In this document: positions 2 through 25,803 of the stretch, in pieces
How positions within the stretch are numbered: the first letter of the stretch is position 1
How the letters are laid out: the number at the start of each line of letters is the position of its first letter
Source: Lachnospiraceae bacterium
Lineage (GTDB): Bacteria; Bacillota; Clostridia; Lachnospirales; Lachnospiraceae
Assembly: GCA_024684155.1 (NCBI GenBank)
Contig: JAIKXK010000265.1
Location: 1-33,942 of the forward strand
Direction: 5' to 3'
DNA: 33,942 nucleotides
Program-made: the position numbers and the translations under genes
Notes under the pieces: generated by a model
The model's database searches: none
Seen by the model: the letters and a program-made list of their open reading frames with translations, nothing else
What the model was told of the DNA's origin: nothing

Positions 2-142
2 GCAAGAAAAATGATGCATATTCCTTTTGATGCACCGACAGAAGAACAAAGAATTTTACGTAATAAATTAATTCAATATGGATTATTTGGTGTAACTTAT
101 ACAAGTAATCCAGATTTTTTTAATGAAAAAAAAGACCAATAG
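2..142 (+). CDS. 3' end of an upstream gene cut by the window edge (46 codons, product unknown)
   Basis: Frame 2 is open from the window edge to TAG 140-142 (...HIPFDAPTEEQRILRNKLIQYGLFGVTYTSNPDFFNEKKDQ*). It overlaps the ATG at 123 by 20 nt, consistent with the operon packing seen elsewhere. No recognisable motif. Confidence 0.4.
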   Translation, partial: ARKMMHIPFDAPTEEQRILRNKLIQYGLFGVTYTSNPDFFNEKKDQ

Positions 143-1010: not shown

Positions 1011-2465
1011 ATGATATTAATGAGTGCAAGTGGATATGATACTATCTTTCGACTCTATATAGTGGTGGGGCTAATTGTATTAGCTTTAGCAGCATTTTTT
1101 GTTTATAAAAAGATTTCTGGAGATAAAATATTTCTTTTTTTAATCTTGGGAGTAGGCAGTGTTTTGCTATTTGTAGAACCGATATTTGCAACTCCAGATG
1201 AACCATTACACTATGCCAATGCTTACCAAATATCCAGTTTTTTTTATGGAGAGGAATTTGGAGTAGGATATAGTACAAGACGTACCATAGATTGGCTGCC
1301 ACCTTATAAAGATAGTGAATTGACAAAAGAGGGGTATGATCGATATGTCTCTTCTTTTGGAGGAAATCAGGATAAAAGTACATATGTATTTTTTGATAAT
1401 TATGCCACCGGATCAAGTAAATTATTATACCTGTTTTCTGGGGTAGGCGTTACTTTGGCAAGAGTGTTTCAAACAAGTTTTGGAACTCTTTCCATAATGG
1501 GAGCCTTAGGCAATCTATTGTTTTACGCCTTTATGCTTTATTACAGTGCAAAGATAATCCCTGTAGGAAAACGTGTGATTTATGTGTTGGGACTAATGCC
1601 TATGTGTATGCAACAGGCGACTTCTTATTCCTATGATGCGGTGCTTATACCATGTGCTATATTGATTATAGCCATGGCATTACGAGTCTCGCAAGATAAG
1701 GCATTTCGTTTACGATGGTGGGATATTCTTTTCGCAGGATTTAGTTTTCTTGTTTTGTTTGTGGCAAAGGGAAAAGCATATTTCCCAATAGCAATCGCAG
1801 CGGGGATTATTATCTTTAAAAAGTCTTGGCTGGATAAAAAATATAAGAAATACTGGTTAGCCATAGGTAGCGTAGCAGTAATGGGAATTGTGGTATTCTT
1901 TTGTGTTTTACATGGAGGAGAACGAATCCTTGGGTTATTACATATGGAGCCAACAATCAACCGGAGCGGAAATCTTTCCTATGCGCCTATTTATTACTTT
2001 ACTCATATAAAAGAGACTTTTTCGATTTTTTCAAATACTCTTACAACAAGAGGAAGTGATTATCTTTATGAAATGGTTGGGGGAAAATTAGGATGGCTTC
2101 AGGTTTGGTTACATCCTGTGCTAATGAAATTGATCATGTTACTACTGATGCTTTCTTGCATACGAAGACCAGAGGAAAAGTCCTTACCCATCATAAAGCG
2201 AATATTAGTAACTGGATGCGCTTTTTTTGCAATTCTTCTTCCTATGTTTGCAATGTTAATTTTTGAGACGGAAAAAACATCAGTTGTGATTGAGGGATTT
2301 CAGGGACGATATATGCTGCCAAGTGTGTTGCCATTTTGTATATCCGTGTTTTTTTGGAAGAAACCACTTCTTTCCACGGAAAAAATAAAGGATGTATATT
2401 TTGCAGTCGTGGCTGGAATACTTTTGTATATATCTTATATAGATTTTTTAGTAAAAATAACATAA
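1011..2465 (+). CDS. Polytopic membrane protein, DUF2142/GT-C-like (putative extracytoplasmic glycosyltransferase)
   Basis: 484 aa with about 12 hydrophobic segments. A KKISGDK loop (inside by the positive-inside rule) is followed by TM2 and then a PDEPLH acidic motif (1194-1211) opening a large loop. AGGA lies 7 nt upstream of the ATG. The gene sits directly upstream of glf. Confidence 0.55.
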   Translation: MILMSASGYDTIFRLYIVVGLIVLALAAFFVYKKISGDKIFLFLILGVGSVLLFVEPIFATPDEPLHYANAYQISSFFYGEEFGVGYSTRRTIDWLPPYKDSELTKEGYDRYVSSFGGNQDKSTYVFFDNYATGSSKLLYLFSGVGVTLARVFQTSFGTLSIMGALGNLLFYAFMLYYSAKIIPVGKRVIYVLGLMPMCMQQATSYSYDAVLIPCAILIIAMALRVSQDKAFRLRWWDILFAGFSFLVLFVAKGKAYFPIAIAAGIIIFKKSWLDKKYKKYWLAIGSVAVMGIVVFFCVLHGGERILGLLHMEPTINRSGNLSYAPIYYFTHIKETFSIFSNTLTTRGSDYLYEMVGGKLGWLQVWLHPVLMKLIMLLLMLSCIRRPEEKSLPIIKRILVTGCAFFAILLPMFAMLIFETEKTSVVIEGFQGRYMLPSVLPFCISVFFWKKPLLSTEKIKDVYFAVVAGILLYISYIDFLVKIT

Positions 2466-2476
2466 AGGAGAATAAA

Positions 2477-3592
2477 ATGAAATACGATTATTTAGTAGTT
2501 GGAGCAGGATTGTTTGGGGCAGTATTTGCATATGAAGCAAAGAAAAAAGGGAAAAAAGTTCTTGTTATAGATAAGAGAAATCATATTGCAGGTAATATTT
2601 ACACAGAAAAAAGAAGTGATATTAATGTTCATGTATATGGGGCTCATATTTTTCACACGAATGAGAAATCAACTTGGGAATATGTAAATCAGTTTGCAGA
2701 GTTTAACAACTATATTAACTCACCAATTGCCCGCTATAAGGACGAATTATATAATCTACCTTTTAATATGAATACATTTTCGAAGATGTGGAATATTAAA
2801 ACTCCTCAAGAGGCAAAGGATAAGATCGCGTCTCAGATTGCGGAATTAAATATTACAGAACCAAAGAATTTAGAGGAACAGGCACTTTCTTTAGCAGGAC
2901 GTGATGTATATGAAAAGCTAGTAAAGGGCTATACAGAAAAACAGTGGGGAAGAAGCTGTAGTGAGTTACCAGCTTTTATTATTAAGCGTTTACCACTACG
3001 TTTTACCTTTGATAATAATTATTTCAATGCTCGTTATCAGGGAATTCCAATGGGTGGCTACACTCAGATTGTTGAGAAAATGTTAGATGGGATTGAAGTA
3101 AGAACAAGTGAAGATTTCTTTGATGTAAAGAAGACAGGAAAACTTTCTGATGGCACGGAAGTAGAATATGACAAAATTTTATTTACAGGTCAGATTGATG
3201 AATACTATGATTCCTGCTTTGGACCTTTGGAATATCGTTCTGTTCGATTTGAAACAGAAGAATTAGAGGAAGAAAATTATCAGGGGAATGCAGTTGTAAA
3301 TTACACAGAAAGAGAAGTTCCATATACTCGAATTATTGAACATAAGCACTTCGAGTTTGGAACACAGCCTACAACGATTATTTCTAGAGAATATTCTTCT
3401 GAGTGGAAGCCAGGGGTAGAACCATATTATCCGGTGAATAATGAAAAGAATAATGCGTTATATGAAAAGTATGCTTCTCTTGCAGCAAAGGAAGAAAATG
3501 TAATTTTTGGTGGCCGTTTGGGACAGTATAAATACTACGATATGGATAAAGTAATTGAAGCTGCCTTAGAGTGCGTGAAGGAAAATTTGTAA
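2477..3592 (+). CDS. glf: UDP-galactopyranose mutase
   Basis: MKYDYLVVGAGLFGAVFAYEA (FAD GxGxxG), VLVIDKRNHIAGN, HVYGAHIFHTN, YNLPFNMNTF and GRLGQYKYYDMD are classic Glf motifs, and the 371-aa length fits. AAGGAG at 2465-2470 supports ATG 2477 rather than the ORF-track start at 2336, which overlaps the previous gene. Confidence 0.93.
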   Translation: MKYDYLVVGAGLFGAVFAYEAKKKGKKVLVIDKRNHIAGNIYTEKRSDINVHVYGAHIFHTNEKSTWEYVNQFAEFNNYINSPIARYKDELYNLPFNMNTFSKMWNIKTPQEAKDKIASQIAELNITEPKNLEEQALSLAGRDVYEKLVKGYTEKQWGRSCSELPAFIIKRLPLRFTFDNNYFNARYQGIPMGGYTQIVEKMLDGIEVRTSEDFFDVKKTGKLSDGTEVEYDKILFTGQIDEYYDSCFGPLEYRSVRFETEELEEENYQGNAVVNYTEREVPYTRIIEHKHFEFGTQPTTIISREYSSEWKPGVEPYYPVNNEKNNALYEKYASLAAKEENVIFGGRLGQYKYYDMDKVIEAALECVKENL

Positions 3593-3669
3593 AGATTGGA
3601 TATATTTACGATTTTATGTTTTAATAAAGGGTGGCAGATTTAGAAAAAACAGGAAAAAGAGGACGTAGA

Positions 3670-4599
3670 ATGAAAAAGAAAATTGCCGTATTAATCCCTT
3701 GTTTCAATGAAAGTGTTACCATTGAAAAGGTAGTAAGGGATTATAAGAGGGCGTTGCCTGAAGCAGATATTTATGTATACGACAATAATTCAACAGATCA
3801 TACAGATGAAATCGCAAGAAAGGCTGGAGCCATTGTACGTTATGAAAGACGTCAGGGAAAAGGAAATGTAATACGCAGTATGTTCCAGCAAGTAGATGCT
3901 GATTGTTATTTGATGATTGATGGAGACGACACTTATCCTGCAGAAAATGCAAGAGAAATGTGTGAGTATGTTTTAAATGATGGTGTTGATATGGTAATTG
4001 GCGACCGTTTATCTTCTACATATTTTACAGAGAATAAACGAGCCTTTCATAATTTCGGAAATGTCTTAGTTCGAAAACTGATTAATGGATTATTTCATAG
4101 CAATGTAAAGGACATTATGACAGGCTATCGAGCATTTAGTAAAACTTTTGTAAAGTCCTTCCCTGTTCTTTCAAAGGGATTTGAGATTGAAACAGAAATG
4201 ACTATTCATGCTCTAGATAAGAATTTCAATTTAAAAGAAATACCAGTTACTTATAGAGACAGACCAGAAGGAAGTGAATCGAAGTTAAATACCTTTAGCG
4301 ATGGGTTCAAAGTTCTTAGAACCATTGCTTCCTTGTGCAGAGATTATAAACCACTATTTTTCTTTACAATATTGGCACTGTTATTCTTTGCAGTGGGGAT
4401 GATACTGTTTATCCCGGTATTCTCTGAATATTTAAGTACAGGATTGGTACTTCGATTCCCTACGTTGTTTGTGTCTTGTATGAGTTTTATTATAGCAATG
4501 CTTATGTATGTCTGTGGACTAATCTTAAGTGTAATAGCAAAGAAACATCGACAGTTGTTTGAACTATATTTATATCAGTTAGAAAAAACGGAGGAATAA
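3670..4599 (+). CDS. Polyprenyl-phosphate glycosyltransferase (GT2, GtrB/CsbB/Ppm1-like, two C-terminal TM helices)
   Basis: [38 protein letters not shown] form the GT2 catalytic core. Two C-terminal hydrophobic helices follow ([23 protein letters not shown] and [27 protein letters not shown]). ATG 3670 is preceded by AGAGGA; the ORF-track GTG 3631 start looks like an over-extension. Confidence 0.75.
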
Positions 4600-13797: not shown

Positions 13798-16728
13798 ATG
13801 GAAAGAATTATTTATTCTAAGTTTTCCAATGACAGAAAAAAAGAATATGCTTTGGTAACAAAAATTCTATCAAAGGATAATGAATTATATGTGTTAAAGG
13901 AAAGTGAGGAAGAAACAGCAAAAAACCATATATTTAAGCTCGTGGAAATCTGTGAGGGGTTAAAAAAACAACTTTTAGATACAGACTTTTATGTTCCTAT
14001 GAGTAAGAAAACAACCAATGGAATCAGAATGGAATATGTAGAAGGCAAGACGCTAGAAGAACATTTTGACGAATTATTAGTAGAGGGAAAAACAAAGGAA
14101 TGTGCAGAAGAAATATATGATTTTTTAAAAGATCTTTTGGAAAAAATACCACACAGTGATTTTAAGATGACAGAAGAATTTTCTGACGTCTTTGGTGAGG
14201 TAACATTGCCAGAGGGGTTATCTAGTTTTGAATGGTCAGATATTGATTTAATTTTCCCTAATATTATTTTGAGTAATAAAGGAAAAGCTATTATTGATTA
14301 TGAATGGACGTTCCATTTTCCTGTTCCGGTGGAGTATATTTGGTTTCGCTCACTTCATAGCTATATTGATTATAGCGAGAAGAGAAAAGAACTTTTAGAT
14401 TATAACTTATATGAGAAACTTGGAATTACAGAAGATATGATAGGTGCATTTTGGAAGATGGAAGATGCTTTCCAAAGTGGTATTTATGAAAAGAGTAGTT
14501 CCTTGGATGAGTTCCATGAAAAGGTGGGGCTTGAGCATTTTTCTTTTCCTTCTGATTATGAGTGTATTCATATGCCAGAGGAAACACCTGGTGATTTCTT
14601 ACGTGTTATAGCAGAATTAGAATCCGAAATTGACAGACAGGTAGAGCGTAAGATGGAAGGGTCTTGCTCTATAAAAAAATTAATTTTATGGGCAGCAAAA
14701 CTTTATGGTAGCGCATCAGAGAAAGAAAAAGAGTTGGCTCATAGAAGTATGAATGCCTCCATGTATTCCTACGATATTTTATTTCCAAATGAGTTGCAAC
14801 ATGATGAATTTATAGTAGTAGATACTGTGAATCAGAAAGCAATGGATGGGCTAAATAGTGGAAAAATTGTTGTAGTGGATGATTGGCTTTATGACAAAGA
14901 AGAAGTGACTCTATGTGATTTACTAGAAGAAAAAACTGAACTGGATTGCAGTTTGTCTTTTTCATATAAGAATGCAAAAGTGTTTTTAGAAGAACGAATG
15001 AAAGATGAACAGAAAAAAACACAAACACTGTTTTCTAATGTGAGAAAAAGAGAAAGAGAAAAAAATGAGAGAAATCTTGCTACGAAAAAAAAGAACGTCA
15101 TATTCTTTTTGGTTTTAGGAGTTTTGACTGTTTTTCGTATTGGTTTGCAACTTCGCTTGCCTATAGGAGCATTTCCTGCTCAATATAGTGACGATGGTAT
15201 TATGATGAGTAATGCCATTAATCTTATGCAGGGAAACTATTTAGGAGAGTATAATTCCTATGTTTTAACAAAGGGGATTTCTTATTCCTTGTTTTTGGTA
15301 CTTACTTATGCAACCATGATTCCTTATGGAATGATGTTATGTATATGGAATATTATTTCTGCAGTAGTGTTTTTGCGCGGAATTTCGCCTCGGATATATT
15401 CAAAAAAATTATTTGCATTTTTATATTTGGTATTACTGTACTTACCAATAGGAATGGATCGATTTATTGGAACAAGAATTTATCGAATTGGAATTATGCC
15501 TTACTTTGCTCTTTTGGTAGCTGGCTGTGCAATTGGTGCTTATCTTAGAAGGGATAAGGGAAGCAAAGCTCTTTTGCCATGGCTGATCTTTGAGGGATTA
15601 TTCCTGGCATTTTTCTATAATATTCGTGAAGATTCTATTTGGATTATGCCATTAGTATTTGTGATTCTAATCATAGAGATAGCTTTAGTTTTCGGTGGAT
15701 TGTGTAAGAAAGAGATGAATCTTTCGAAATTTCTTAAAAGAAGTTTGTTGTATTTACTTCCCATCCTTATATTGTTTGGAACACAGCAGATTTATAAAGG
15801 GGTAAATTATTGTGTATATGGAATTGCAGAAGTAAATGATCGAGCAGGATCTTCCTATGCGGATGTATTAGAGGATTTATATCATATTGATGGCGAAATT
15901 GAGAGAGTAGATGTCTGGGTAACACAGGAAATGCTTCAGAATGCCATTGATGTAAGTCCAACACTTGCATCGATTGAGAAAGAAATCCATGAGAATATGG
16001 CTCAATGGGCAGTGGAAAAGCAGGTACGTGGAGATTTAGTTGGTTGGGCATTGCGAGAAGCAGTAGCAGAAGCTGGCTATTATAAAGATGCTGTTTCAAC
16101 CGAAGCGTTCTATGCTGATGTTCACAAAGAACTAACAGACGCTTTTTCCAACGGCTCTTTAAAGGAAAGGGATGGAATCTATTTATCTTCACAGTTACAG
16201 GCAACAACTCCAAAAGAACTTGTAAAGGTAGTATTAAAATCTCTTCGCACAATGTTTTATGATAGTACCTATTACGAAGTGAAGGCAGAAGCTCAAAAAG
16301 CTCAAGGAAATGTAGATGAAGTCCGTACCTTCGAAAGAGTTACTGGACAACTTGCAGTAATGACAGAAAAGGATTTAAAGGGATATAACAAAGAAGCGAT
16401 TACGGTTGCTAATGCAATTATTTTTGTTTATCGCATTCTGGGATTTATCACTACGCTTTTAAGTGTAGTTGCATATTTATATTTAACAATTTCACTGTTG
16501 AAAAAAAGAAAGTACCAAAATGTTATCTGTATGGATTCATGGTTGATTTTAACAGGTCTTATTCTCAGTGCATTTGTACTTTGTTTTGGAGTAATGATGG
16601 CCATGCGATGGTTTGTGGACAATGTGAATATTTGGTCTGCTTTTTATACAGCAGCTTGTTTTCCATATATTGTATTGTTTAAATGGCTGGCACTTTACTT
16701 AGGTTATAAAGAGTATAAGGAAGGATAA
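13798..16728 (+). CDS. Chimeric protein: N-terminal protein-kinase-like domain, charged/coiled linker, GT-C-like polytopic membrane domain with a ~200-aa extracytoplasmic insert
   Basis: The kinase-like signature comprises YVLKES (Lys34), MEYVEGKTL (hinge-like), DLIFPN (D150-x4-N155, 14245-14262) and IIDYEW (D167, 14296-14298), spaced as in APH/WbdD-type kinases. A K/E/R-rich stretch spans aa 395-432. TM1 starts near aa 433 and is followed by AQYSDDG (15190-15195). About 8 TMs, a soluble segment at about aa 660-860 and 3 more TMs follow. Confidence 0.55.
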   Translation: MERIIYSKFSNDRKKEYALVTKILSKDNELYVLKESEEETAKNHIFKLVEICEGLKKQLLDTDFYVPMSKKTTNGIRMEYVEGKTLEEHFDELLVEGKTKECAEEIYDFLKDLLEKIPHSDFKMTEEFSDVFGEVTLPEGLSSFEWSDIDLIFPNIILSNKGKAIIDYEWTFHFPVPVEYIWFRSLHSYIDYSEKRKELLDYNLYEKLGITEDMIGAFWKMEDAFQSGIYEKSSSLDEFHEKVGLEHFSFPSDYECIHMPEETPGDFLRVIAELESEIDRQVERKMEGSCSIKKLILWAAKLYGSASEKEKELAHRSMNASMYSYDILFPNELQHDEFIVVDTVNQKAMDGLNSGKIVVVDDWLYDKEEVTLCDLLEEKTELDCSLSFSYKNAKVFLEERMKDEQKKTQTLFSNVRKREREKNERNLATKKKNVIFFLVLGVLTVFRIGLQLRLPIGAFPAQYSDDGIMMSNAINLMQGNYLGEYNSYVLTKGISYSLFLVLTYATMIPYGMMLCIWNIISAVVFLRGISPRIYSKKLFAFLYLVLLYLPIGMDRFIGTRIYRIGIMPYFALLVAGCAIGAYLRRDKGSKALLPWLIFEGLFLAFFYNIREDSIWIMPLVFVILIIEIALVFGGLCKKEMNLSKFLKRSLLYLLPILILFGTQQIYKGVNYCVYGIAEVNDRAGSSYADVLEDLYHIDGEIERVDVWVTQEMLQNAIDVSPTLASIEKEIHENMAQWAVEKQVRGDLVGWALREAVAEAGYYKDAVSTEAFYADVHKELTDAFSNGSLKERDGIYLSSQLQATTPKELVKVVLKSLRTMFYDSTYYEVKAEAQKAQGNVDEVRTFERVTGQLAVMTEKDLKGYNKEAITVANAIIFVYRILGFITTLLSVVAYLYLTISLLKKRKYQNVICMDSWLILTGLILSAFVLCFGVMMAMRWFVDNVNIWSAFYTAACFPYIVLFKWLALYLGYKEYKEG

Positions 16729-17758: not shown

Positions 17759-19402
17759 ATGATAGAAGTATTTGCGGATGTAATGAAAAACTTTTTAGAG
17801 TTTTTCAATGGAAATTATACTTATATAGTTTTATATGTATTGGCCTTAATTGTAATGGTTATCTGGATGAAGAAAAAAGATGTGACAAAGAATCTTATCT
17901 GGATGAGTATTCTATTATCTATTGTAATTTTCTGCCCAATTACTGCAAAGATAATTATGGTGGGACTTGGAGATAATGTATATTGGAGGATGTTTTGGCT
18001 ATATCCATTCATTCCAGTTATTTCAGTTGCATTGACTTTATTAGTATCAAAGGTAAAGCATAAATTGTTACGTTTTTTTGCAGTGGGAATGTGCGGAGTG
18101 TTTATTCTTTTGGCCGGGAATTCCGTCATCAGTAAGGAATTGTTTGATCGAGCAGAAAACTATGAAAAGACTCCACAGTACGTAATAGAAGTTTGTAACA
18201 TGATTAACGAGGATGCAAAAGAGCAGAATATTACAGATAAAAAATTAGCAACCTGCTCAGCATTTTTATTATATGTGAGACAATATGATGCTACATTAAA
18301 AATGGAAAATAGTAGAGAAAACATTCGTGGGTTTGATGATAGAGAAAATGCATCTATGATTTTTCAATACTTATGTGGTCAAAATGAGAGCATTGATTAT
18401 GATGAGCTGGCAGAATTACTTCGGGAAGAAAACTGTTCCTACATTGTTTTAGATATGGAATATCAGACAGAAATGGGAAGCGAATTAGTAAATCGGGGCT
18501 TTACTCCTGTTGGAAATTATGGACAGTATTATGTTTATAGAGATGGATTCATCAATCTTATGGAACCAATTGAAAACAACGAAGTGGTCAGTCAGTTTGC
18601 AACTTCTGATTCGGGATATTTAATCGGACAATACGCGTCCTTAACAGGGGATCAATCTTCCTTTTATACTATTACAGATACAAAAGGACATTTGATTGTT
18701 ATTGACGGAGGATGGAAAGGGGATAGCGAATATGTTCGTCAGGTAATTGATTACTTTGGCGGAAAAGTGGATGCCTGGATTATTACACATCCTCACTTTG
18801 ACCATGTTCGTGCCTTTAATACCTTAATGGCATCAGAAAACTGCCCAGAAATCACTACGATTTATGCTTCTGAATTTGATTATGATCAATATAAAGAAGA
18901 AGCCAAAAACTGGGATCATTTTGAAGACTTTGAAGATTTTTTAAGCGTTACAAAGGATGCTACGAATTTAGAATATTTACATGCAGGAGACTCTTTGGAA
19001 ATTTGTGGCTTACAAGTGGATGTTTACCATGATTATTCTACCAAAGATGGGGGAGATGCCTGTAATGATGGTTCTTTGGTTTTTGAAGTGACAGCAAACC
19101 AACAAAGTATGCTCTTTTGTGGAGATACAGGAGAGGAACAGTCAGAGACGATTATAGAAAATTATGGAGAACAACTTTCAGCAGATTATCTTCAAATGGG
19201 ACACCACGGAAATGGCGGGTTAAATGAAGAATTCTATAAATTAGTTTCTCCTTCAGTGGCTTTTTTCGATGCACCAGAGTGGCTTATGAATCCAGAGGGA
19301 GAAACTACCTATACCACACCTGAAAATCGTGAGTTGATGGAGTCCCTAGGTGCAAAGATTTATTATTTTAATACAGCACCAAATTATATTATTTTGGATT
19401 AA
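17759..19402 (+). CDS. Membrane-anchored metallo-beta-lactamase-fold hydrolase (ComEC/Pce-type MBL domain), 4 N-terminal TM helices
   Basis: There are 4 TMs in aa 20-123, with KKKDVTK and SKVKHKLLR loops. The MBL motifs are VIDGG, THPHFDH (HxHxDH, 18788-18805), LFCGDTGEE and LQMGHHGNGG, the last being the ComEC-like xHHGS motif. The positive-inside rule places the C-terminal 420 aa outside the membrane. Confidence 0.7.
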   Translation: MIEVFADVMKNFLEFFNGNYTYIVLYVLALIVMVIWMKKKDVTKNLIWMSILLSIVIFCPITAKIIMVGLGDNVYWRMFWLYPFIPVISVALTLLVSKVKHKLLRFFAVGMCGVFILLAGNSVISKELFDRAENYEKTPQYVIEVCNMINEDAKEQNITDKKLATCSAFLLYVRQYDATLKMENSRENIRGFDDRENASMIFQYLCGQNESIDYDELAELLREENCSYIVLDMEYQTEMGSELVNRGFTPVGNYGQYYVYRDGFINLMEPIENNEVVSQFATSDSGYLIGQYASLTGDQSSFYTITDTKGHLIVIDGGWKGDSEYVRQVIDYFGGKVDAWIITHPHFDHVRAFNTLMASENCPEITTIYASEFDYDQYKEEAKNWDHFEDFEDFLSVTKDATNLEYLHAGDSLEICGLQVDVYHDYSTKDGGDACNDGSLVFEVTANQQSMLFCGDTGEEQSETIIENYGEQLSADYLQMGHHGNGGLNEEFYKLVSPSVAFFDAPEWLMNPEGETTYTTPENRELMESLGAKIYYFNTAPNYIILD

Positions 19403-19421: not shown

Positions 19422-20774
19422 ATGCAGGGAAAGAAAAAAATATTTACCATTGTGTTTTTTGCATTTGCAGGAGCACATATTTTAACATTTACCCACGGAG
19501 ATTCTACTAGAATTATGGAATGGGCGAAGCTATTTTTAGATAGCTTGTTTTCTGGAAATATTAGAAATTATGCTGAAGTATTATTGGATAAAGATATCCC
19601 TTCAAACTACAGCATTTTTATTCATATTATAAATTCCATTTGGGTGCTTCCTGTATATGGGATTGATACTTTTATAGATGGAGATATACCTTTATATGTG
19701 TATTCCATGTGGCACCGTGTGCTGTCAGTTCTGCTTACGTTTATTACTATGGGCTATATAGAAAAAATAGGAATACATTTTGGTGTGTCTAGGGAAAAAA
19801 TGGAAGTTGCTACGTTTTTCTATGGCATTTCTACACCACTAATTGTAGGAACTTATGCTATGGGACAAATTGATGCATACCCAACGTTGTTTATGGTAAT
19901 GGGGTTATATTATTTGCTTGAAGAAAAAACGACAGAATCCATTTTATCCTTTTCAGTGATTTTATTTTTAAAACCGTTTGCCTTTATGTATATAGCTCCT
20001 ATGCTGCTGTTATATTTTGCAGATAAATGGAAAAAAGCAATTCCTTATGGAGTATTAGTCGGTATAGTTTGGATTGTGAAAAAACTTGTTACAAAGATAT
20101 TTATCGGATATGGAGATATGGTCTATGTAGAAGAGGTGGAATGGGATCATTTAAGCTTCTTTTTCACTTCAGAGATAAATGTCTTACCACTTTTTGTATT
20201 AACGGTGGGAGTTGTACTTTGTATCTGTTTTGTAAAGGGCATGAAAGGAAAGGTGAAAGAGTGGGATTATATTTACTATCCATATGTAGTATTTTTAGCT
20301 TTTGTAGCATTTAACTTTTGGAATCCCCAGTGGTTTTTGTATGGGATGCCTTTTATCACAATTATATTGTGTAAGATGTGTAATGAAGCAGAAGCAATGG
20401 CTTTTGGTGCAGGCATAAATGGGGCATATTTACTCTTTAACTATTGTGCTTTTAATGGCATGGTGGAAAGTAATATGATTGCAGGTGGACTTATTGCAAA
20501 AACAAGTGGCATTAAGTGGAAAAGTGCAAGCTTACTTGGATTAATTGCAAATAAAATGCCTACAATATCAGGGTACATAACTTCAATTAGTTTAGGAATA
20601 TTAGTGGCTTGTATGATATATGTTTGTTATGCTACTAGGAAAGAGACGTTAGAAGCAGAAGTAGTGGATGCATCTTTGTTTGAAAATAAGAAAAAAGCTT
20701 TTTTGGTTTTATTTGTGATGATATCCATATTTATGATTATATATTCTTATTTTGAGCTATTTAGATGGAATTAA
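19422..20774 (+). CDS. Polytopic membrane protein of unknown function (possible GT-C glycosyltransferase, polymerase or ligase)
   Basis: 450 aa with about 11-12 hydrophobic segments. The N-terminal MQGKKK (inside) is followed by TM1 and then THGDSTRIMEW opening an external loop. TAGGAG lies upstream. I recognise no soluble domain or named motif. Confidence 0.4.
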   Translation: MQGKKKIFTIVFFAFAGAHILTFTHGDSTRIMEWAKLFLDSLFSGNIRNYAEVLLDKDIPSNYSIFIHIINSIWVLPVYGIDTFIDGDIPLYVYSMWHRVLSVLLTFITMGYIEKIGIHFGVSREKMEVATFFYGISTPLIVGTYAMGQIDAYPTLFMVMGLYYLLEEKTTESILSFSVILFLKPFAFMYIAPMLLLYFADKWKKAIPYGVLVGIVWIVKKLVTKIFIGYGDMVYVEEVEWDHLSFFFTSEINVLPLFVLTVGVVLCICFVKGMKGKVKEWDYIYYPYVVFLAFVAFNFWNPQWFLYGMPFITIILCKMCNEAEAMAFGAGINGAYLLFNYCAFNGMVESNMIAGGLIAKTSGIKWKSASLLGLIANKMPTISGYITSISLGILVACMIYVCYATRKETLEAEVVDASLFENKKKAFLVLFVMISIFMIIYSYFELFRWN

Positions 20775-20903: not shown

Positions 20904-22196
20904 ATGAAAAAATTTTTCAGCAAAAAGAGAAACATAGTGATTGCCGTAATTGTTGTAATTGCATTAGCTGCAGCAGGTGTTGGCGGATACTATTATTTCT
21001 TTGTTGGAACAAGTAGCGAGGATATTGCATATGTGTCCAGCGTAGCAACAATTACAGGCCAGACTGCAAATGGATTAAATAATCGCTATGCAGGTGTTGT
21101 AGAGGCCGAAGAGACTTGGAGTGTAGCATTGGATAGTTCTTTAACGGTTAGTGAGACTTATGTTGAAGTAGGACAGGAGGTAGAGGCAGATACTCCTTTA
21201 TTTTCCTATGATATGACTGAAACAGAAGCATCCCTTCGAAGTGCACAGTTAGAACTAGAAAGATTAAACAACGAACTTACTGCAATGCAAACAGATTTAA
21301 ATGAGTTAGTTGCTGCAAGGGATGCAACAGGGGATGAAAGTGCAAAGGCGGAATATACAGTTGAAATTCAACAGTCCCAGTTAGATATTACCTCAAAGCA
21401 GTATGATATTACTTCGAAAAAAGAGGAAATTACAAAACTTCAGGAAACGTTAAATAAGGGAACGGTAAACAGTAAAATCGCAGGAGTGGTAAAGTCAATT
21501 GCATCATCAGATAGTAGTGAGATGTCTGATTCAAATGCATTTATTACCATTGTAAATATGAATAAGTTCCAAATTAAAGGAAGTGTAAATGAACAGAATT
21601 TAGCTTCTTTATCTGCAGATTTACCAGTCATTGTGTATTCAAGATCAGATAGCGAGGCTTATTGGAAGGGAACGATTACAAAGGTAGATTCGAATAATGC
21701 TACAAGTAATGGTTCTGATGAGACTGACTCAGATGAAATGACGTCTTCCTCTAACTACCCATTCTATGTTTCAGTAGAAGATACCACTGGTTTAAATATG
21801 GGACAGCACGTTTATATTGAACTAGACCAAGGACAGTTGGAAGAGGATACTTCTGCTATTTCATTAGAGGAATACTATATCGATATGACAGATGAACAAA
21901 ATCCATTTGTTTGGGTGGATGAAGATGGTAAGCTGGCAAAACGAAGTGTAACCCTTGGCGAATATAATGAGGATACCATGACCTACGTAATAACAGATGG
22001 GTTAGACCTTACTGACTTAATTGCAGTGCCTTATGAAGGATTAAAAGAGGGTATGGAGACTTCAAATATGGATGAAGTAGATACAGAGGATGTCAGTGAA
22101 GAAGGTGACTACGAAGAGTCTGAAGAATCAGAAGGCGATGTAGAAGAATTAACCGATGATTCTGAAATGGAAGATGAGGGTGAAATAGAGGAGTAA
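20904..22196 (+). CDS. HlyD/MacA-family membrane-fusion (periplasmic adaptor) protein 1, with acidic C-terminal tail
   Basis: An N-terminal TM (IVIAVIVVIALAAAGVGGYYYFF), lipoyl halves (RYAGVVEAEE..VEVGQEVEADTPLFSYD and KIAGVVKSI), a coiled-coil hairpin (SLRSAQLELERLNNELTAMQTDLNEL..) and a beta-barrel/MP domain. The last 42 aa (22068-22193) are overwhelmingly D/E/S. Confidence 0.8.
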   Translation: MKKFFSKKRNIVIAVIVVIALAAAGVGGYYYFFVGTSSEDIAYVSSVATITGQTANGLNNRYAGVVEAEETWSVALDSSLTVSETYVEVGQEVEADTPLFSYDMTETEASLRSAQLELERLNNELTAMQTDLNELVAARDATGDESAKAEYTVEIQQSQLDITSKQYDITSKKEEITKLQETLNKGTVNSKIAGVVKSIASSDSSEMSDSNAFITIVNMNKFQIKGSVNEQNLASLSADLPVIVYSRSDSEAYWKGTITKVDSNNATSNGSDETDSDEMTSSSNYPFYVSVEDTTGLNMGQHVYIELDQGQLEEDTSAISLEEYYIDMTDEQNPFVWVDEDGKLAKRSVTLGEYNEDTMTYVITDGLDLTDLIAVPYEGLKEGMETSNMDEVDTEDVSEEGDYEESEESEGDVEELTDDSEMEDEGEIEE

Positions 22197-22213
22197 TCCC
22201 GGAGGAGAATAAA

Positions 22214-22936
22214 TTGATTTTAGAAATGAAAAACGTTTATAAAGATTTTCCTCAGGGAGATTTCACTGTAAACGTATTAAAACATATTAATATTCAAATC
22301 CAAGAAGGCGATTATGTTGCTATTACTGGACCATCCGGTTCTGGAAAAACCACAATGATGAACTTAATCGGTTGCTTGGATTCAGTTACCAAAGGCCAAA
22401 TGATTTTGGATGGAGAGGATGTTAGCTCTTATACAGATAATCAACTTTCTGATTTAAGACTCCATAAAATTGGATTTGTATTTCAGAACTTTGAATTGTT
22501 AGGACAAAAGAGTGCAATTAAAAATGTTTGTGTTCCTTTGGCTTTTGCAGGAGTTCCGAAAAAAGAACAAATGGAAAGAGCAAAGGAAGCTTTAGAGAGG
22601 GTAGGATTAGGAGAGAGATTAGATTTCAAACCAAATCAGTTATCCGGTGGACAAAAACAAAGGGTTGCAATTGCAAGAGCCATGATCAATCGTCCACGTA
22701 TTTTACTTGCAGATGAGCCTACAGGTGCATTAGATTCAGCATCAGGAAAGGCAGTAATGGAGCTCTTTCAGCAGTTAAATGATGAAGGAACTACTATTAT
22801 AATGATTACTCATGACGCAGATGTTGCAGCAAAGGCGAAACGCAGAGCTGTAATGCGAGATGGTATATTAACTTCAGATGATGAGACTTTGGTACCACCT
22901 TATGAGGGAGAGGAGGTGCCTGAAAATGACCAATAA
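22214..22936 (+). CDS. MacB-family ABC transporter ATP-binding protein
   Basis: Walker A GPSGSGKTT, Q-loop, LSGGQKQRVAIARA, ILLADEPTGALD and ITHD. TTG 22214 lies 7 nt after GGAGGAG; ATG 22226 is an alternative start. The N-terminus MILEMKNVYKDF fits the family consensus. Confidence 0.9.
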   Translation: MILEMKNVYKDFPQGDFTVNVLKHINIQIQEGDYVAITGPSGSGKTTMMNLIGCLDSVTKGQMILDGEDVSSYTDNQLSDLRLHKIGFVFQNFELLGQKSAIKNVCVPLAFAGVPKKEQMERAKEALERVGLGERLDFKPNQLSGGQKQRVAIARAMINRPRILLADEPTGALDSASGKAVMELFQQLNDEGTTIIMITHDADVAAKAKRRAVMRDGILTSDDETLVPPYEGEEVPENDQ

Positions 22937-24533
22937 AGAGTGGAGTCTTAAGAAAAAGATTATTGTTGGCATTCTTGTTGGAATTCTCATATTTGCATTA
23001 GTGATTGGTGTCGTTTATATCGCTGTGTATTCTAATATGGGAAAGGTTCGCGTTATCCCTGTATCTGATGCCATTGGATATGATTCTGATTCTGATCAGT
23101 ATACTATGGAAGGAAGTATTAGCACAGGGGTTACTCAAGATGTAACAACAGAAGATGGAAAAGTTTCTGAAATTTTAGTAAAGGTTGGAGACTATGTTGA
23201 AAAGGGCACTGCTTTAGTGAGATTAGATGCAACTGAAGCTCAACTTCAATTAGAACAGGCGAAAATTGATTTACAATCAAAGCAGGTTGATTTGAATAAT
23301 GCTTATGCAAAGCAGGAAATGCTGAATAATGCTCAAAGTTATGTAGAGACAATAAAAGTTCCTGTGGATTCTGATGATGAAGACAGTTCTGAAAGCGATT
23401 CTGATTCTTCTAGTGAAAGTTCTGATTCATCATCAGATTCAGAGTCTTCTGATGATAGCGATTCCGATTCAGAGTCTTCCGAAGAAAGTGATTCAGATTC
23501 TGATTCATCTGAAGAAAGTGACTCGGATTCCGATTCGTCCAGTGATAGTTCTGATTCATCATCAGATTCAGAATCAGAGTCTTCCGAAGAAAGTGATTCA
23601 GAAACTGAGTATAAGGAAGTGGTAGTGGAAACAGATGAACCACAATTTCAAACTTCGGATGGGACTATTTATTCAGAATCAGAATTACGAAAAGAAAAGA
23701 CTTCTACAGAAAATGACATTAGAGATTTACAAACGGATATTAAGGAAGCTCAGGTAAATATAGAAAATGCACAGGAAACTTTAGATAACTGTACCGTAAA
23801 AGCAACCTTGGATGGTTATGTGACAAAGGTGTCTGAAACCGCAATTAAAAGCGACACTTCTGAAGAGGACTCAGATGAGGATGAAGAAGAACTAGATGGG
23901 GAAATCGATACCTCATCAGATATTGTTTCAGATACAGATGATAGCATGGAAGATGATGGGGTTATTGTCCAGGTGTCTTCCTTGGATGGTTTATTTGTGA
24001 AATCTGCTATGAGTGAATGGCGATTAGAAAAATTTGGTGTGGGAGACACTGTCTATGTCATGGATTGGGAAAGTGGCAATACCTATAAGGCAACCATTAC
24101 TACTATTTCTTCTTATGCTTCTGAATATTATTCACAGATGTATCAGTATATGGGAGGAACTTCATCAAGTTACTATCCTTTTACAGCGCAGATTACAGAA
24201 GATGGAACAGGACTTACTGCTGGAGATTATGTAGATGTTTCTTTTAGCGCTTCCATGGATATGGATAGCGATGAGGAAGAATACACTGAAGATGGACCAA
24301 TTAGCCTGATGAAAGCATTTGTTCGCACTGAAAATGGAAAGAAGTACGTTTATGTAAGAGGTGAGAATGACAAATTAAAGAAACAGTATGTAACTGTTGA
24401 TAGTCAGTCTCAGGAAACCTATACCATATCAGAGGGTCTTACCTATGATGATTATATCGCGTTCCCTTATGGAAATAATGTAAGAGAAGGCGCATTAACG
24501 GTAGAAGGTAGCATTGATGAATTATATGAATAA
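22926..24533 (+). CDS. HlyD/MacA-family membrane-fusion protein 2, carrying an 81-aa Ser/Asp/Glu tract in the hairpin region
   Basis: ATG 22926 follows GGAGGAGG and overlaps the ATPase stop by 11 nt; the ORF-track start 22878 is an over-extension. Features are a TM (IIVGILVGILIFALVIGVVYIAV), a lipoyl half (ILVKVGDYVEKGTALVRLD), helix 1 (EAQLQLEQAKIDLQSKQVDLNNAYAKQEMLNNAQ), the S/D/E tract, helix 2 (RKEKTSTENDIRDLQTDIKEAQVNIENAQETLDNC) and LDGYVTKV. Confidence 0.8.
   Translation: MTNKEWSLKKKIIVGILVGILIFALVIGVVYIAVYSNMGKVRVIPVSDAIGYDSDSDQYTMEGSISTGVTQDVTTEDGKVSEILVKVGDYVEKGTALVRLDATEAQLQLEQAKIDLQSKQVDLNNAYAKQEMLNNAQSYVETIKVPVDSDDEDSSESDSDSSSESSDSSSDSESSDDSDSDSESSEESDSDSDSSEESDSDSDSSSDSSDSSSDSESESSEESDSETEYKEVVVETDEPQFQTSDGTIYSESELRKEKTSTENDIRDLQTDIKEAQVNIENAQETLDNCTVKATLDGYVTKVSETAIKSDTSEEDSDEDEEELDGEIDTSSDIVSDTDDSMEDDGVIVQVSSLDGLFVKSAMSEWRLEKFGVGDTVYVMDWESGNTYKATITTISSYASEYYSQMYQYMGGTSSSYYPFTAQITEDGTGLTAGDYVDVSFSASMDMDSDEEEYTEDGPISLMKAFVRTENGKKYVYVRGENDKLKKQYVTVDSQSQETYTISEGLTYDDYIAFPYGNNVREGALTVEGSIDELYE
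23367..23609 (+). repeat. Imperfect tandem/dispersed coding repeat encoding 81 consecutive S/D/E residues (one T)
   Basis: The translation is DSDDEDSSESDSDSSSESSDSSSDSESSDDSDSDSESSEESDSDSDSSEESDSDSDSSSDSSDSSSDSESESSEESDSETE. One 26-nt exact repeat occurs at 23418-23443 and 23547-23572 (offset 129). One 29-nt exact repeat occurs at 23469-23497 and 23574-23602 (offset 105). Both offsets are multiples of 3. Confidence 0.95.
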
Positions 24534-24552
24534 TAAGAAATAAGAGGCGATT

Positions 24553-25803
24553 ATGAGAGAAAATTTAGTCGAAGCGTTACAGGAAATTTGGTCTCATAAA
24601 ATGAGATCATTCTTAACAATGCTAGGTGTTATTATAGGTATTGCGTCTATTATTGCAATTGTTTCCACCATTAAAGGTACCAATGATCAAATAATGAAAG
24701 ACTTGGTAGGAAAGGGTAATAATAACGTATCTATTAGTTTATACCAGGGTGATTACGAGTATTATTTTGAAGGGGATACAGTTTCGGAAATTACGCAGGT
24801 AACAGAAGAGCAACAGGAAGAAATCCGTTCCATCGAACATGTGGAAGATGCCACATTTTATAATTCAAGAACTTATGTAGATAATATTTCGGCTGGTTCA
24901 AAGGTGTTATCAGGTGGAAAGATTTACGGGATTGATACACATTATTTAAATACATGTGGATATGTGGTATATCAAGGTCGTGCCTTTGTGGATATTGACT
25001 ATAAAAAGTGTAATAAGGTAGCACTTTTGGATTCTACTGCTGCAGATATTTTATTTCCTGGAGAAAACGCAGTTGGTCAAACGTTAGAAATTAGCGGAGA
25101 ACCCTTTATTATTGTGGGATTATATCAACAGCAGACTGCCTTTGAACCAGATATTCAAAATCTGTCTGACTATGAAACCTATTATACGGAATCATATGGT
25201 ACGGTTTTAATACCAAATGTGGATTGGGCTATTTGCTATAAATATGATGAACCTCAAAACGCATTTGTACGAGCAGATGATACAGAAAATATGTCTGCGA
25301 TTGGAAAATCAGCTCAGAAAATTATGCAGGAGTGTATCTCATCTTCAGGAACAGATTTAACCTATACAGCAGAGGATTTAGTTGAGGAAGCTAAACAACA
25401 ACAGCAGTTGTCAAATAGTACTAATAACTTACTGATTTGGGTTGCTAGTATAGCCCTGTTAGTTGGGGGTATTGGCGTTATGAATATTATGCTGGTATCT
25501 GTAACAGAACGAACAAGAGAAATTGGTTTGAAGAGATCCCTTGGAGCCAGAAGACGAAGAATTCTAATGCAGTTTTTAACGGAATCTGCAGTTCTTACCA
25601 GTTTAGGCGGTGTTCTTGGCGTTGTGATAGGAATTGTAATGGCGGTAATTATATCAAATATTTCCGGAACACCAGTGGGAATTTCAGTGCCAGCCATTGT
25701 GGTGAGTGTAGCATTTTCTATGGTAATTGGAATTTTGTTTGGTTTACTCCCTTCCGTTAAAGCCGCTAATTTAAACCCAATCGATGCACTTCGAAGGGAA
25801 TAG
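24553..25803 (+). CDS. MacB-type ABC transporter permease (FtsX domain with large extracytoplasmic domain)
   Basis: The N-terminal MRSFLTMLGVIIGIASIIAIVS TM is followed by an extracytoplasmic domain of about 240 aa and a C-terminal FtsX 3-TM bundle (LLVGGIGVMNIMLVSVTERTREIGLKRSLGARRRRI...NLNPIDALRRE). AAGAGG lies upstream. Confidence 0.9.
   Translation: MRENLVEALQEIWSHKMRSFLTMLGVIIGIASIIAIVSTIKGTNDQIMKDLVGKGNNNVSISLYQGDYEYYFEGDTVSEITQVTEEQQEEIRSIEHVEDATFYNSRTYVDNISAGSKVLSGGKIYGIDTHYLNTCGYVVYQGRAFVDIDYKKCNKVALLDSTAADILFPGENAVGQTLEISGEPFIIVGLYQQQTAFEPDIQNLSDYETYYTESYGTVLIPNVDWAICYKYDEPQNAFVRADDTENMSAIGKSAQKIMQECISSSGTDLTYTAEDLVEEAKQQQQLSNSTNNLLIWVASIALLVGGIGVMNIMLVSVTERTREIGLKRSLGARRRRILMQFLTESAVLTSLGGVLGVVIGIVMAVIISNISGTPVGISVPAIVVSVAFSMVIGILFGLLPSVKAANLNPIDALRRE

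Follow-up and report, generated by a model that had tools for sequence, protein, structure and literature searches.

The window analysed here, a 33,942-nucleotide contig from a Lachnospiraceae bacterium, encodes a MacB-type transporter cassette in which one of two adaptor proteins (adaptor 2, P0001) is interrupted by a long run of serine, aspartate and glutamate residues. Retranslation of 23367-23609 on the forward strand gave 81 codons made up of S43, D22, E15 and T1 with no other residue (net charge -37), as the first-pass annotation of this DNA had described, and the flanking peptides that it gave also matched the translation. Other S/D/E/T runs of at least 8 residues, found by six-frame translation of the whole window, reached at most 14 residues. 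The coordinates of the cassette and of the features of adaptor 2 are collected in Table 1.

Table 1. Position, strand and supporting evidence for the genes of the transporter cassette and for the features encoded within the adaptor 2 gene.
Feature	Position	Strand	Evidence
Adaptor 1, paralogous YknX/MacA-type, tight hairpin turn, acidic C-terminal tail of ~45 aa	20904..22196	+	Pfam HlyD_3, HlyD_D23; NCBIfam RND_mfp
ABC ATPase, MacB/LolD/FtsE type	22214..22936	+	Pfam ABC_tran 5.8e-33; best NCBIfam match MacB nucleotide-binding domain, 3e-76
Adaptor 2 (P0001), YknX/MacA-type, 535 aa, tract carrier	22926..24533	+	Ribosome-binding site; structure and sequence matches
N-terminal transmembrane anchor, residues 8-36	22947..23033	+	AlphaFold2 helix
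Hairpin helix 1, residues 103-134	23232..23327	+	AlphaFold2 with DSSP; 10-residue-block mean pLDDT 91-96
Tip beta cap, first half, strands 137-139 and 142-146, YVETIKVPV	23334..23363	+	AlphaFold2; conserved in orthologues
S/D/E(T) polyanionic disordered loop, residues 148-228	23367..23609	+	Translation; pLDDT <50 at 150-225
Related repeat copies inside the tract	23397-23446/23526-23575 and 23565-23608	+	Repeat search
Imperfect in-frame tandem repeat, period 30 nt x3.3	23433..23530	+	Tandem Repeats Finder
Tip beta cap, second half, residues 229-250, EYKEVVVETDEPQFQTSDGTIY	23610..23675	+	AlphaFold2 strands 229-233, 240-242, 248-250; conserved
Hairpin helix 2, residues 251-287	23676..23786	+	AlphaFold2; 10-residue-block mean pLDDT 90-96
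Second acidic disordered insert, residues 309-342, between second lipoyl half and beta-barrel	23850..23951	+	pLDDT <50
MacB-type permease, MacB_PCD and FtsX domains	24553..25803	+	Pfam 2.3e-26, 2.4e-21; NCBIfam MacB 2.9e-51

The DNA of the tract is repetitive. The exact repeats noted earlier were all present, one of 26 nt starting at 23418 and again at 23547 and one of 29 nt starting at 23469 and again at 23574. The repeat search also yielded a 44-nt family in four copies, along with a 50-nt pair. When the codons of the tract were shuffled 2000 times, the longest exact repeat was 12.7 nt on average and at most 24 nt, compared to the 29 nt observed; since the observed repeat exceeds every shuffle, the repeats are duplications and not an effect of composition. 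The repeat composition also gives rise, as a side effect, to two ORFs that overlap the tract, 23374-23625 (+) and 23410-23643 (-). An assembly artefact or a non-coding repeat was ruled out, as the tract is in frame, has conserved flanks and has a counterpart in every orthologue; its exact length (81 aa) is that found in one assembly. Translation starts at ATG 22926, which is taken as the true start because a ribosome-binding site (GAGGAGG, 22909-22915) lies upstream and the N-terminus MTNKEWSLKKK is kept in orthologues.

Adaptor 2 combines an N-terminal anchor, a split lipoyl domain with an alpha-hairpin, beta-barrel and membrane-proximal domains, and adjacent transporter genes, all features of the adaptor family. 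Its best match among solved structures by sequence was Spr0693 (5xu0; 9e-16). An AlphaFold2 monomer model built on a 16-sequence alignment matched AcrA, MacA and Spr0693 in Foldseek at E-values of 1e-15 to 1e-12 over 380-530 alignment columns (target-normalised TM-score of 0.57 for Spr0693), with MexA also matched. Profile scores were low for Pfam HlyD_3, for RND_mfp (77 bits against a cut-off of 94.9) and for the split lipoyl domain (Biotin_lipoyl_2, residues 93-117, with an E-value of 2.7e-5 that misses the Pfam cut-off), and the orthologues are recorded with PF25984 (BSH_YknX) and Beta-barrel_YknX. Taken with the matches of the neighbouring genes, these profile, sequence and structure results agree with the initial assignment of the protein to the MacA/YknX-type adaptors and of its gene to an operon that also encodes a MacB-type ATPase and permease. 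A scan for promoters and terminators inside the cassette found none above shuffle expectation, which is consistent with a single operon.

The two adaptors share 28% identity over the whole architecture, with the ATPase gene lying between them. The gene order adaptor 1, ATPase, adaptor 2, MacB-type permease was kept in 70 of 84 loci and the cassette is conserved in Clostridia; in the present lineage it is embedded in a rhamnose cell-wall polysaccharide locus, and in one distant relative it is surrounded by housekeeping genes. Spr0693 from Streptococcus pneumoniae (5XU0) and YknX from Bacillus have the same domain order (N-terminal transmembrane helix, split lipoyl, alpha-hairpin, beta-barrel, membrane-proximal) and the same split MacB-type ATPase and permease partners. 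The present system differs from them in having two paralogous adaptors that flank the ATPase gene, with no YknW-like gene adjoining the cassette, and in three structural respects: a beta cap and an 81-aa polyanionic loop replace the hairpin turn, adaptor 2 has a second acidic insert and adaptor 1 has an acidic tail. The tail is kept in orthologues of adaptor 1, and the second insert is missing from three relatives of adaptor 2 (P0012, P0013, P0016). Paired adaptors are also found in TriABC-OpmH of Pseudomonas aeruginosa, where two paralogous adaptors and one transporter are encoded per operon, the pump is of the RND type, the host is diderm and the adaptors contact the outer-membrane channel. 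The cassette described here likewise has two paralogous adaptors for one transporter, but the transporter is MacB-type, the host is monoderm and one of the adaptors has a modified tip.

In the AlphaFold2 model the tract is predicted to be disordered (pLDDT <50 across residues 150-225) and leaves a tip beta cap between the two hairpin helices, with strands 290-302 coming after the second helix. The earlier placement of the tract at the hairpin tip therefore stood, with one amendment: the tract forms a closed loop that emerges from a small conserved beta cap and does not interrupt a simple helical turn. As the pTM of the model is low (0.37), the relative orientation of its domains is not established. 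By the positive-inside rule, the basic N-terminus (MTNKEWSLKKK) would lie inside the cell and the remainder of the protein outside. E. coli MacA of the MacAB-TolC pump (5NIK, 3FPP) has the same overall adaptor fold and partnership with MacB, and its hairpin tip docks tip-to-tip with TolC. A disordered insert at this position would probably be incompatible with TolC-like docking. The host is a monoderm member of the Lachnospiraceae, in keeping with the earlier expectation of an organism without an outer membrane, and has no TolC.

All seven orthologues (61-72% identity) carried a tract at the same tip that was 58-93 aa long, dominated by S, T, D and E and had a net charge of -17 to -36. These tracts were without hydrophobic residues, except for a terminal V in five of the seven. 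In several orthologues (P0008, P0047, P0048) the tract consisted mainly of D/E with little S/T. A strain-specific expansion, which the first-pass annotation had raised as a possibility, is thus not what the tract represents. The tract of the metagenome-assembled genome RUI179 was 93 aa (S53, D29) and was encoded by an 18-nt DNA unit with codons unlike those of P0001. S/D tracts arose independently out of different repeat units.

The Clostridial adaptor-2 family comprised 737 representative clusters at 50% identity (E<=1e-30), with homologues present in the genomes of Fusicatenibacter saccharivorans, Lacrimispora saccharolytica and Roseburia yibonii. Tip inserts were delimited with two sub-profiles, one of the lipoyl half plus helix 1 and the other of helix 2 plus the lipoyl half. 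The insertion measured 25-582 aa (median 230 aa) and was net negative in 164/164 family members, among which P0001 ranked fifth by negative charge density. Across genome loci it was net negative in 70/71, the exception being L076 with a short tip insert and a net charge of +2. In the same loci the tip turn or insert had a median of 3 aa in adaptor 1 (n=61) compared to 200 aa in adaptor 2 (n=74), and the adaptor 1 turn was at most 10 aa in all 61. Many relatives have a folded module at the same tip site. Pfam searches of eight large tip inserts gave sub-threshold PKD, I-set and Ig_3 matches in two and no match in six, and Foldseek with a model of P0032, whose tip module is ~90 aa, returned adaptor structures only, with no separate match for the module. 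Compared by eye with L012 and P0032, the second half of the beta cap in adaptor 2 (residues 229-250) resembles a vestige of the motif found in the tip modules of these larger relatives. These data show that the P0001 tract is one instance of a hypervariable tip insertion found throughout the family, which turns over fast by repeat gain and loss and whose net charge is almost always negative.

Length polymorphism had been predicted from the repeats. An exact look-up of the P0001 protein found no record, its 90% cluster had one member, and no relative was found among 600 pattern stretches to which P0001 was matched in a scan of JGI metagenomes. Because no same-species tract variants were found, orthologue clusters of at least 90% identity were used instead. 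All internal indels in these clusters fell in acidic tracts, the second acidic insert included, so the prediction held in relatives, in which proteins at least 90% identical differ exactly there. Such indels, together with a tip sequence that is not conserved and insert lengths from 25 to 582 aa, are also what would be expected if the tip of adaptor 2, having no docking partner in a monoderm, were simply a permissive loop in which slippage-prone DNA grows and shrinks and acidity is merely tolerated as soluble and non-aggregating. Similar acidic tracts at two further exposed sites, the tail of adaptor 1 and the second insert of adaptor 2, point the same way, as does the acidity of other exported proteins of the window (net charge -45 for an HtrA-like and -46 for an MBL-fold protein). 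However, the insertion was never lost in 164 members, the paralogue adaptor 1 never gained one, the net charge was negative in every family member and in all but one locus, and S/D tracts of independent origin were built from different repeat units. The folded modules at the same site also argue for a functional role of the tip in display, and we consider neutral filler an unlikely explanation.

We also weighed the analogy, drawn in the first-pass annotation, to the serine-aspartate stalks that carry staphylococcal Clf/Sdr proteins across the wall. The repeat regions of ClfA/B and SdrC-E are, like the present tract, S/D-rich, repeat-encoded, length-polymorphic, extracellular and acidic (PMC3794999). 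The likeness proved to be compositional only. Those regions are stalks with a strict SD dipeptide array, whereas the tract is an internal loop of a membrane-anchored adaptor, contains Glu at 15/81 positions (19%) and has a longest strict (SD)n or (DS)n run of 6 residues. No LPXTG-like motif was present in the adaptor 2 protein, Pfam detected no Clf/Sdr ligand-binding domain in it and the NCBIfam ClfA model scored 20.3 bits against a cut-off of 1150. The tract is also a loop anchored in the beta cap at either end, with no distal domain to hold out, and by scaling it would have an Rg of ~27 Å and a geometric reach of at most ~145 Å. Gram-positive walls are 100-400 Å thick and start above the adaptor. 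A closed loop of 81 residues therefore cannot span the wall as Sdr stalks do, and a stalk-like role is most unlikely. Staphylococcal SD-repeat regions are glycosylated by SdgA/SdgB; no glycosyltransferase of this type was found among window ORFs of at least 150 aa, those found being of the GT2 family plus one WsaF-like protein.

Glycosylation by another route is possible, if rather less than probable. The Ser-rich extracytoplasmic loop could be O-glycosylated outside the membrane by a GT-C-type enzyme using a polyprenyl-phosphate sugar, with the glycan serving as a protease shield or a modulator. Ser/Thr-rich disordered extracytoplasmic regions of streptococcal PrsA, PBP1a, LytR and PknB are glycosylated, and the authors of that study report regions of this kind to be common across Firmicutes (Rahman et al., 2025; PMC12041528). 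With 54% S+T and a pLDDT <50, the tract is Ser/Thr-rich and predicted to be disordered, and the N-terminal anchor of the protein would place it outside. It also resembles the streptococcal regions in lying beside a folded domain in a membrane-anchored Firmicute envelope protein. A GT2 encoded nearby (3631-4599) resembled polyprenyl-P-sugar synthases (AglJ at 9e-68 and, more weakly, PpgS, PgfS and ArnC, all below curated cut-offs), and it adjoins a DUF2142 polytopic membrane protein (1011-2465) that is a candidate GT-C. This precedent and the neighbouring genes provide circumstantial support, which the other roles put forward in the first-pass annotation (spacer, cation binding) have not gained, as do the position of the cassette within a cell-wall polysaccharide locus and the Pro/Thr-rich linkers in the tip insert of distant relatives. 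However, side-chain decoration of the rhamnose polysaccharide is a sufficient explanation for the GT2 and DUF2142 genes, the cassette of the distant relative lies among housekeeping genes, and the mostly D/E tracts of P0008, P0047 and P0048 offer few S/T. The streptococcal regions, moreover, are mostly C-terminal poly-S/T tails rather than a polyanionic internal loop, the streptococcal study makes no mention of adaptors and no SdgA/SdgB-like enzyme was seen among the window ORFs of at least 150 aa.

A net charge of -37 within 81 residues could also serve electrostatic capture, in which anionic loops would aid the expulsion or sequestration of cationic antimicrobial peptides or of Ca2+/Mg2+ by gathering them near the pump. 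Characterised Gram-positive MacB-type adaptor systems do protect against cationic peptides, with LL-37 countered by Spr0693-0695, SDP by YknWXYZ and AS-48 by a system in Enterococcus (PMC5768738, PMC5985334). The conserved setting of the cassette, with polysaccharide genes or housekeeping genes around it, is however unlike a peptide-resistance island, and many relatives have a lower charge density and folded tip modules. We regard capture as quite unlikely.

The function that we favour, with about even confidence, is that of a flexible anionic brush, possibly glycosylated, that faces the wall where the pump opens. The adaptors would form a helical barrel ~50 Å long above the permease, as those of Spr0693 and YknX do, probably mixing adaptor 1 and adaptor 2 (a hetero-hexamer is assumed), with its open end at the inner face of the wall. 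In Spr0693, residues 142-163 of the hairpin turn (22 residues) are disordered and the assembled pump reaches approximately the inner-wall zone (PMC5768738); YknX in purified form binds to peptidoglycan (PMC5985334). From each of three to six adaptor-2 tips would extend a flexible, non-sticky and strongly anionic loop of the size estimated above. Together, these loops could act as an electrostatic and entropic brush round the exit that keeps anionic wall polymers from blocking or sticking to its mouth, and the brush could also fix the spacing to the wall. Binding of divalent cations or cationic peptide substrates may be a secondary role, and the serines may be O-glycosylated, a modification compatible with the brush. 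Selection would then act on the charge, disorder and approximate length of the tract and not on its sequence. Several observations count against a brush: tract sequence and length are so variable, even between strains, that a merely tolerated filler may also account for them, acidic low complexity also occurs at other exposed parts (the tail of adaptor 1, the second insert of adaptor 2), and the short tip insert of L076 has a net charge of +2. As acidity is shared with other exported proteins of the window, part of it may reflect a general exoproteome bias.

Within the literature searched, we found no description of hairpin-tip insertions or of two-adaptor MacB cassettes in Gram-positives; the first-pass annotation had likewise been aware of no adaptor with such an insert. 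Reviews call the role of adaptors, and notably of their hairpins, unexplained in bacteria without an outer membrane (PMC4446572, PMC5985334). A broader reading, which we regard as unlikely, is that the cassette is a core Clostridial envelope machine and not a drug pump, in which the adaptor-2 tip would be a modular, wall-engaging display site of polyanionic, possibly glycosylated loops or of folded modules, coupling MacB mechanotransmission to the assembly of wall polysaccharide or peptidoglycan. If this were true, the long-unexplained hairpins of Gram-positive adaptors would gain a defined job. The present data identify one place where evolution acts on a Gram-positive adaptor, with the tip of one paralogue turned into a display site that is hypervariable and net-negative and that of the other still a minimal turn, and the insertion would mark where these adaptors face the cell wall. 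The insert can be removed, neutralised or swapped and so offers a testable handle on adaptor function. With it, adaptors join the Firmicute envelope proteins in which an emerging class of extracytoplasmic low-complexity regions is found, and commensals that are abundant in gut and rumen gain a marker that varies between strains.

Translation of 23367-23609 (+), in the adaptor 2 gene, gave 81 residues (S43, D22, E15 and one T), bearing out the first-pass annotation of a tract of Ser, Asp and Glu only with a single T. The tract corresponds to residues 148-228 of an ORF with the listed coordinates 22878-24533. Translation of this ORF actually starts at the ATG at 22926, with a GAGGAGG ribosome-binding site at 22909-22915 and an N-terminus (MTNKEWSLKKK) found in every orthologue; adaptor 2 (P0001) is therefore 535 aa. 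Six-frame translation revealed no comparable tract elsewhere in the window. A repeat search confirmed exact repeats of 26 nt (23418/23547) and 29 nt (23469/23574) at the coordinates first annotated, Tandem Repeats Finder detected 3.3 copies of a 30-nt period at 23433-23530, and imperfect repeat families of 44 nt and 50 nt were also present. When the codons of the tract were shuffled 2000 times, the longest exact repeat averaged 12.7 nt and never exceeded 24 nt, indicating that the repeats are duplications and not a side-effect of composition.

Adaptor 2 belongs to a cassette of four co-oriented genes with intergenic spacing of -11 to +19 nt, within which no promoter or terminator signals rose above shuffle expectation. 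Its best solved-structure match by sequence was S. pneumoniae Spr0693 (5xu0, E 9e-16), and its AlphaFold2 model matched AcrA, MacA, MexA and Spr0693 (Foldseek E 1e-15 to 1e-12), with a TM-score of 0.57 normalised to 5xu0. Adaptors 1 and 2 are paralogues that share 28% identity over their entire architecture. The gene order was intact in 70 of 84 loci, with most of the remainder appearing to be cut by contig ends, and it was spread over Lachnospiraceae, Oscillospiraceae and a few Erysipelotrichaceae (20904-25803 in the window).

Genes of the transporter cassette and predicted elements of adaptor 2
Feature	Location	Strand	Remarks
Adaptor 1	20904-22196	+	First gene of cassette
ABC ATPase	22214-22936	+	MacB/LolD/FtsE type
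Adaptor 2 (P0001)	22926-24533	+	
Permease	24553-25803	+	MacB_PCD and FtsX domains
Transmembrane helix	residues 8-36		AlphaFold2; followed by first lipoyl half
Hairpin helix 1	residues 103-134		AlphaFold2; block pLDDT 91-96
Short strands	residues 137-139, 142-146		AlphaFold2
Disordered stretch	residues 150-225		AlphaFold2; pLDDT <50
Strands	residues 229-233, 240-242, 248-250		AlphaFold2
Hairpin helix 2	residues 251-287		AlphaFold2; followed by second lipoyl half
Second disordered acidic insert	residues 309-342 (23850-23951)		AlphaFold2
Beta-barrel and membrane-proximal domains	after residues 309-342		AlphaFold2

The AlphaFold2 model of adaptor 2 (16-sequence input, mean pLDDT 71) had a pTM of only 0.37, so that inter-domain geometry is not fixed by it. 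The tract lay between the two hairpin helices, as first proposed for the hairpin tip, although it is predicted to be a closed loop leaving a small conserved beta cap and not a simple helical turn. The second acidic insert separates the second lipoyl half from the beta-barrel and is missing in the related proteins P0012, P0013 and P0016. The earlier analogy with Clf/Sdr proteins, in which the tract would act as a wall-spanning stalk, did not hold up and is unlikely: in contrast to those proteins the tract is a loop and no stalk, its SD runs are short, adaptor 2 has no LPXTG motif and the match to the ClfA model was negligible.

Tracts of 58-93 aa were present at the same position in all seven orthologues (61-72% identity), preceded by a conserved ...T(I/V)(K/Q)VP(V/I) and followed by EY(K/Q)(D/E)V. 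All seven were dominated by S/T/D/E, with net charges of -17 to -36 and no hydrophobic residues except a terminal V in five. The 93-aa tract of MAG RUI179 (S53/D29) is built from ten copies of the 18-nt unit GACAGTAATAGTTCTTCA, with codons differing from those of the window, and is an independent expansion. Relatives at 40-49% identity carried shorter D/E/T tracts. In a full-library profile search 737 representative clusters matched at E<=1e-30, and both hairpin helices could be anchored in 164 members. The segment between the helices ranged from 25 to 582 aa (median 230) and was net negative in 164/164 (median -0.14 charge per residue), with P0001 fifth by negative charge density. Across the genome loci the adaptor 2 insert had a median of 200 aa (n=74) and was net negative in 70 of 71, compared to a median of 3 aa and a maximum <=10 for the turn of the adaptor 1 paralogue in the same loci (n=61). 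S/D-rich runs were again found in the deeply diverged relatives P0099, P0034, P0038 and P0041, with P0099 carrying a pure S/D run of 82 aa directly before helix 2. Charge and disorder are conserved in the tract, sequence and length are not.

No same-species sequence of the window's adaptor 2 was present in the searchable collections, and length polymorphism was measured for six orthologues, within their clusters at ≥90% identity. All internal indels fell inside acidic tracts. Those of the tip tract involved a 9-aa unit (DSEKSDSSS) in cluster 1, a TEDS unit in cluster 5 and 6-14 aa in cluster 6, and clusters 4, 5 and 9 had indels in the second acidic insert. The sole other length difference was a C-terminal truncation in P0218. 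The length polymorphism predicted between strains was therefore observed in relatives. Because the tip insert is hypervariable, neutral filler, i.e., a tolerated loop, is a serious alternative to a functional tract. Three observations weaken this alternative: no relative lacks the insert, the adaptor 1 paralogue never acquires one and the negative sign of the charge is nearly invariant.

Larger tip inserts hold a folded module of ~90 aa between two disordered linkers (residues 162-252 of P0032, pLDDT 75-80 in the predicted structure), with Pro/Thr-rich linkers and weak Ig/PKD-like signals in some members. The module is common to most larger members (e.g., P0032, L009, L012, L016, L018, P0017, P0023, P0099), with the motif NPYRFLC...G.VIT..FL...VLE(I/V)REGD..G.L...W. 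It had no Pfam match and Foldseek returned no separate match for it. Compared by eye, the DEPQFQTSDGTIYSESEL cap in the window appears to be what remains of the N-terminal motif of this module.

The relatives came almost entirely from uncultured Lachnospiraceae, Oscillospiraceae and other Clostridia of rumen and gut, all monoderms. Four loci with a Clostridial cassette (L041, L019, L062, L047) were titled Alloprevotella, Tidjanibacter, Bacteroidaceae or Senegalimassilia 'cleanbin' genomes and are probably mis-binned contigs. The window corresponds to a cell-wall polysaccharide locus of the rhamnose/galactofuranose type, with genes for several GT2 glycosyltransferases, a WsaF-like enzyme, Glf, RmlA-, RmlC- and RmlD-like enzymes, Wzm, Wzt with a Wzt_C domain, a methyltransferase, membrane proteins with DUF2142 and DUF6077, a UDP-sugar pyrophosphorylase, a priming phosphotransferase, an LCP ligase and, assigned by synteny with L001, an HtrA-like protease. 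This synteny was kept in relatives to ~40% identity (L001, L082, L083, L085); the cassette of the distant P0038 (L084) lies among relA, aspS, rpsB and tsf. No Pfam or NCBIfam match was found for a 976-aa ORF (13798-16728) downstream of Wzt and the methyltransferase or a 450-aa polytopic membrane ORF (19422-20774) just upstream of the cassette. A 547-aa metallo-beta-lactamase-fold protein (17759-19402, net charge -46), resembling the ComEC C-terminal domain, is conserved in L001 immediately ahead of the cassette; L083 has a His_Phos_1 protein at this position. As listed, the UDP-galactopyranose mutase ORF (2336-3592) starts at a TTG and shares 130 nt with the DUF2142 gene before it; translation probably begins further downstream, as the L085 orthologue is 371 aa.

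One GT2 (3631-4599) resembles polyprenyl-phosphate sugar synthases (AglJ 9e-68; PpgS, PgfS and ArnC weaker; all below cut-offs) and lies close to the DUF2142 polytopic membrane protein (1011-2465). The two could be parts of an extracytoplasmic glycosylation system. O-glycosylation of the tract is possible by analogy with streptococci, in which glycosylation via GtrB/PgtC2 or Pgf protects disordered, S/T-rich extracytoplasmic regions from proteolysis (PMC12041528), and the window has this synthase-like GT2 beside DUF2142. However, polysaccharide decoration accounts equally well for both genes, and the tracts of several relatives are almost pure D/E.

Both adaptors are extreme polyanions (net charges -65 and -90). 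Other exported proteins of the window are acidic too, so the acidity of the tract may in part be a general exoproteome bias. The adaptor 1 C-terminus (22059-22196, residues ~386-430) forms an acidic tail of ~45 aa with 18 D/E in the last 30, and tails of the same character, 40-60 aa long, are found at the C-terminus of its orthologues (L001-L007, L045).

The tract is predicted to form a disordered loop of strong negative charge, carried by one of two paralogous adaptors at its distal tip. Spr0693 and YknX assemble into MacA-like hexameric tubes, the hairpin turn of Spr0693 is disordered as well, and the modelled pump reaches ~154 A, to about the zone of the inner wall. Peptidoglycan is bound by YknX, and the role of MacA-like adaptors in monoderms is regarded as an open question (PMC5768738, PMC5985334, PMC4446572). 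Denatured-state scaling gives each loop an Rg of ~27 A, and the closed-loop reach is <= ~145 A. We infer for the tract a specific function in which three to six loops per pump would together act as an anionic entropic brush around the open end of the tube, which would stop anionic wall polymers clogging or sticking to the exit and would set the spacing between pump and wall; cation or cationic-peptide binding and O-glycosylation may be additions to this brush. The adaptor family is already known; the literature searched gave no description of the tip insertion, of the polarity between paralogues, of the conserved two-adaptor cassette or of a two-adaptor MacB system in Gram-positives, in agreement with the first-pass annotation, which was aware of no adaptor with such an insert. 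The tip insertion offers a direct experimental handle on the job of adaptor hairpins in monoderm bacteria.
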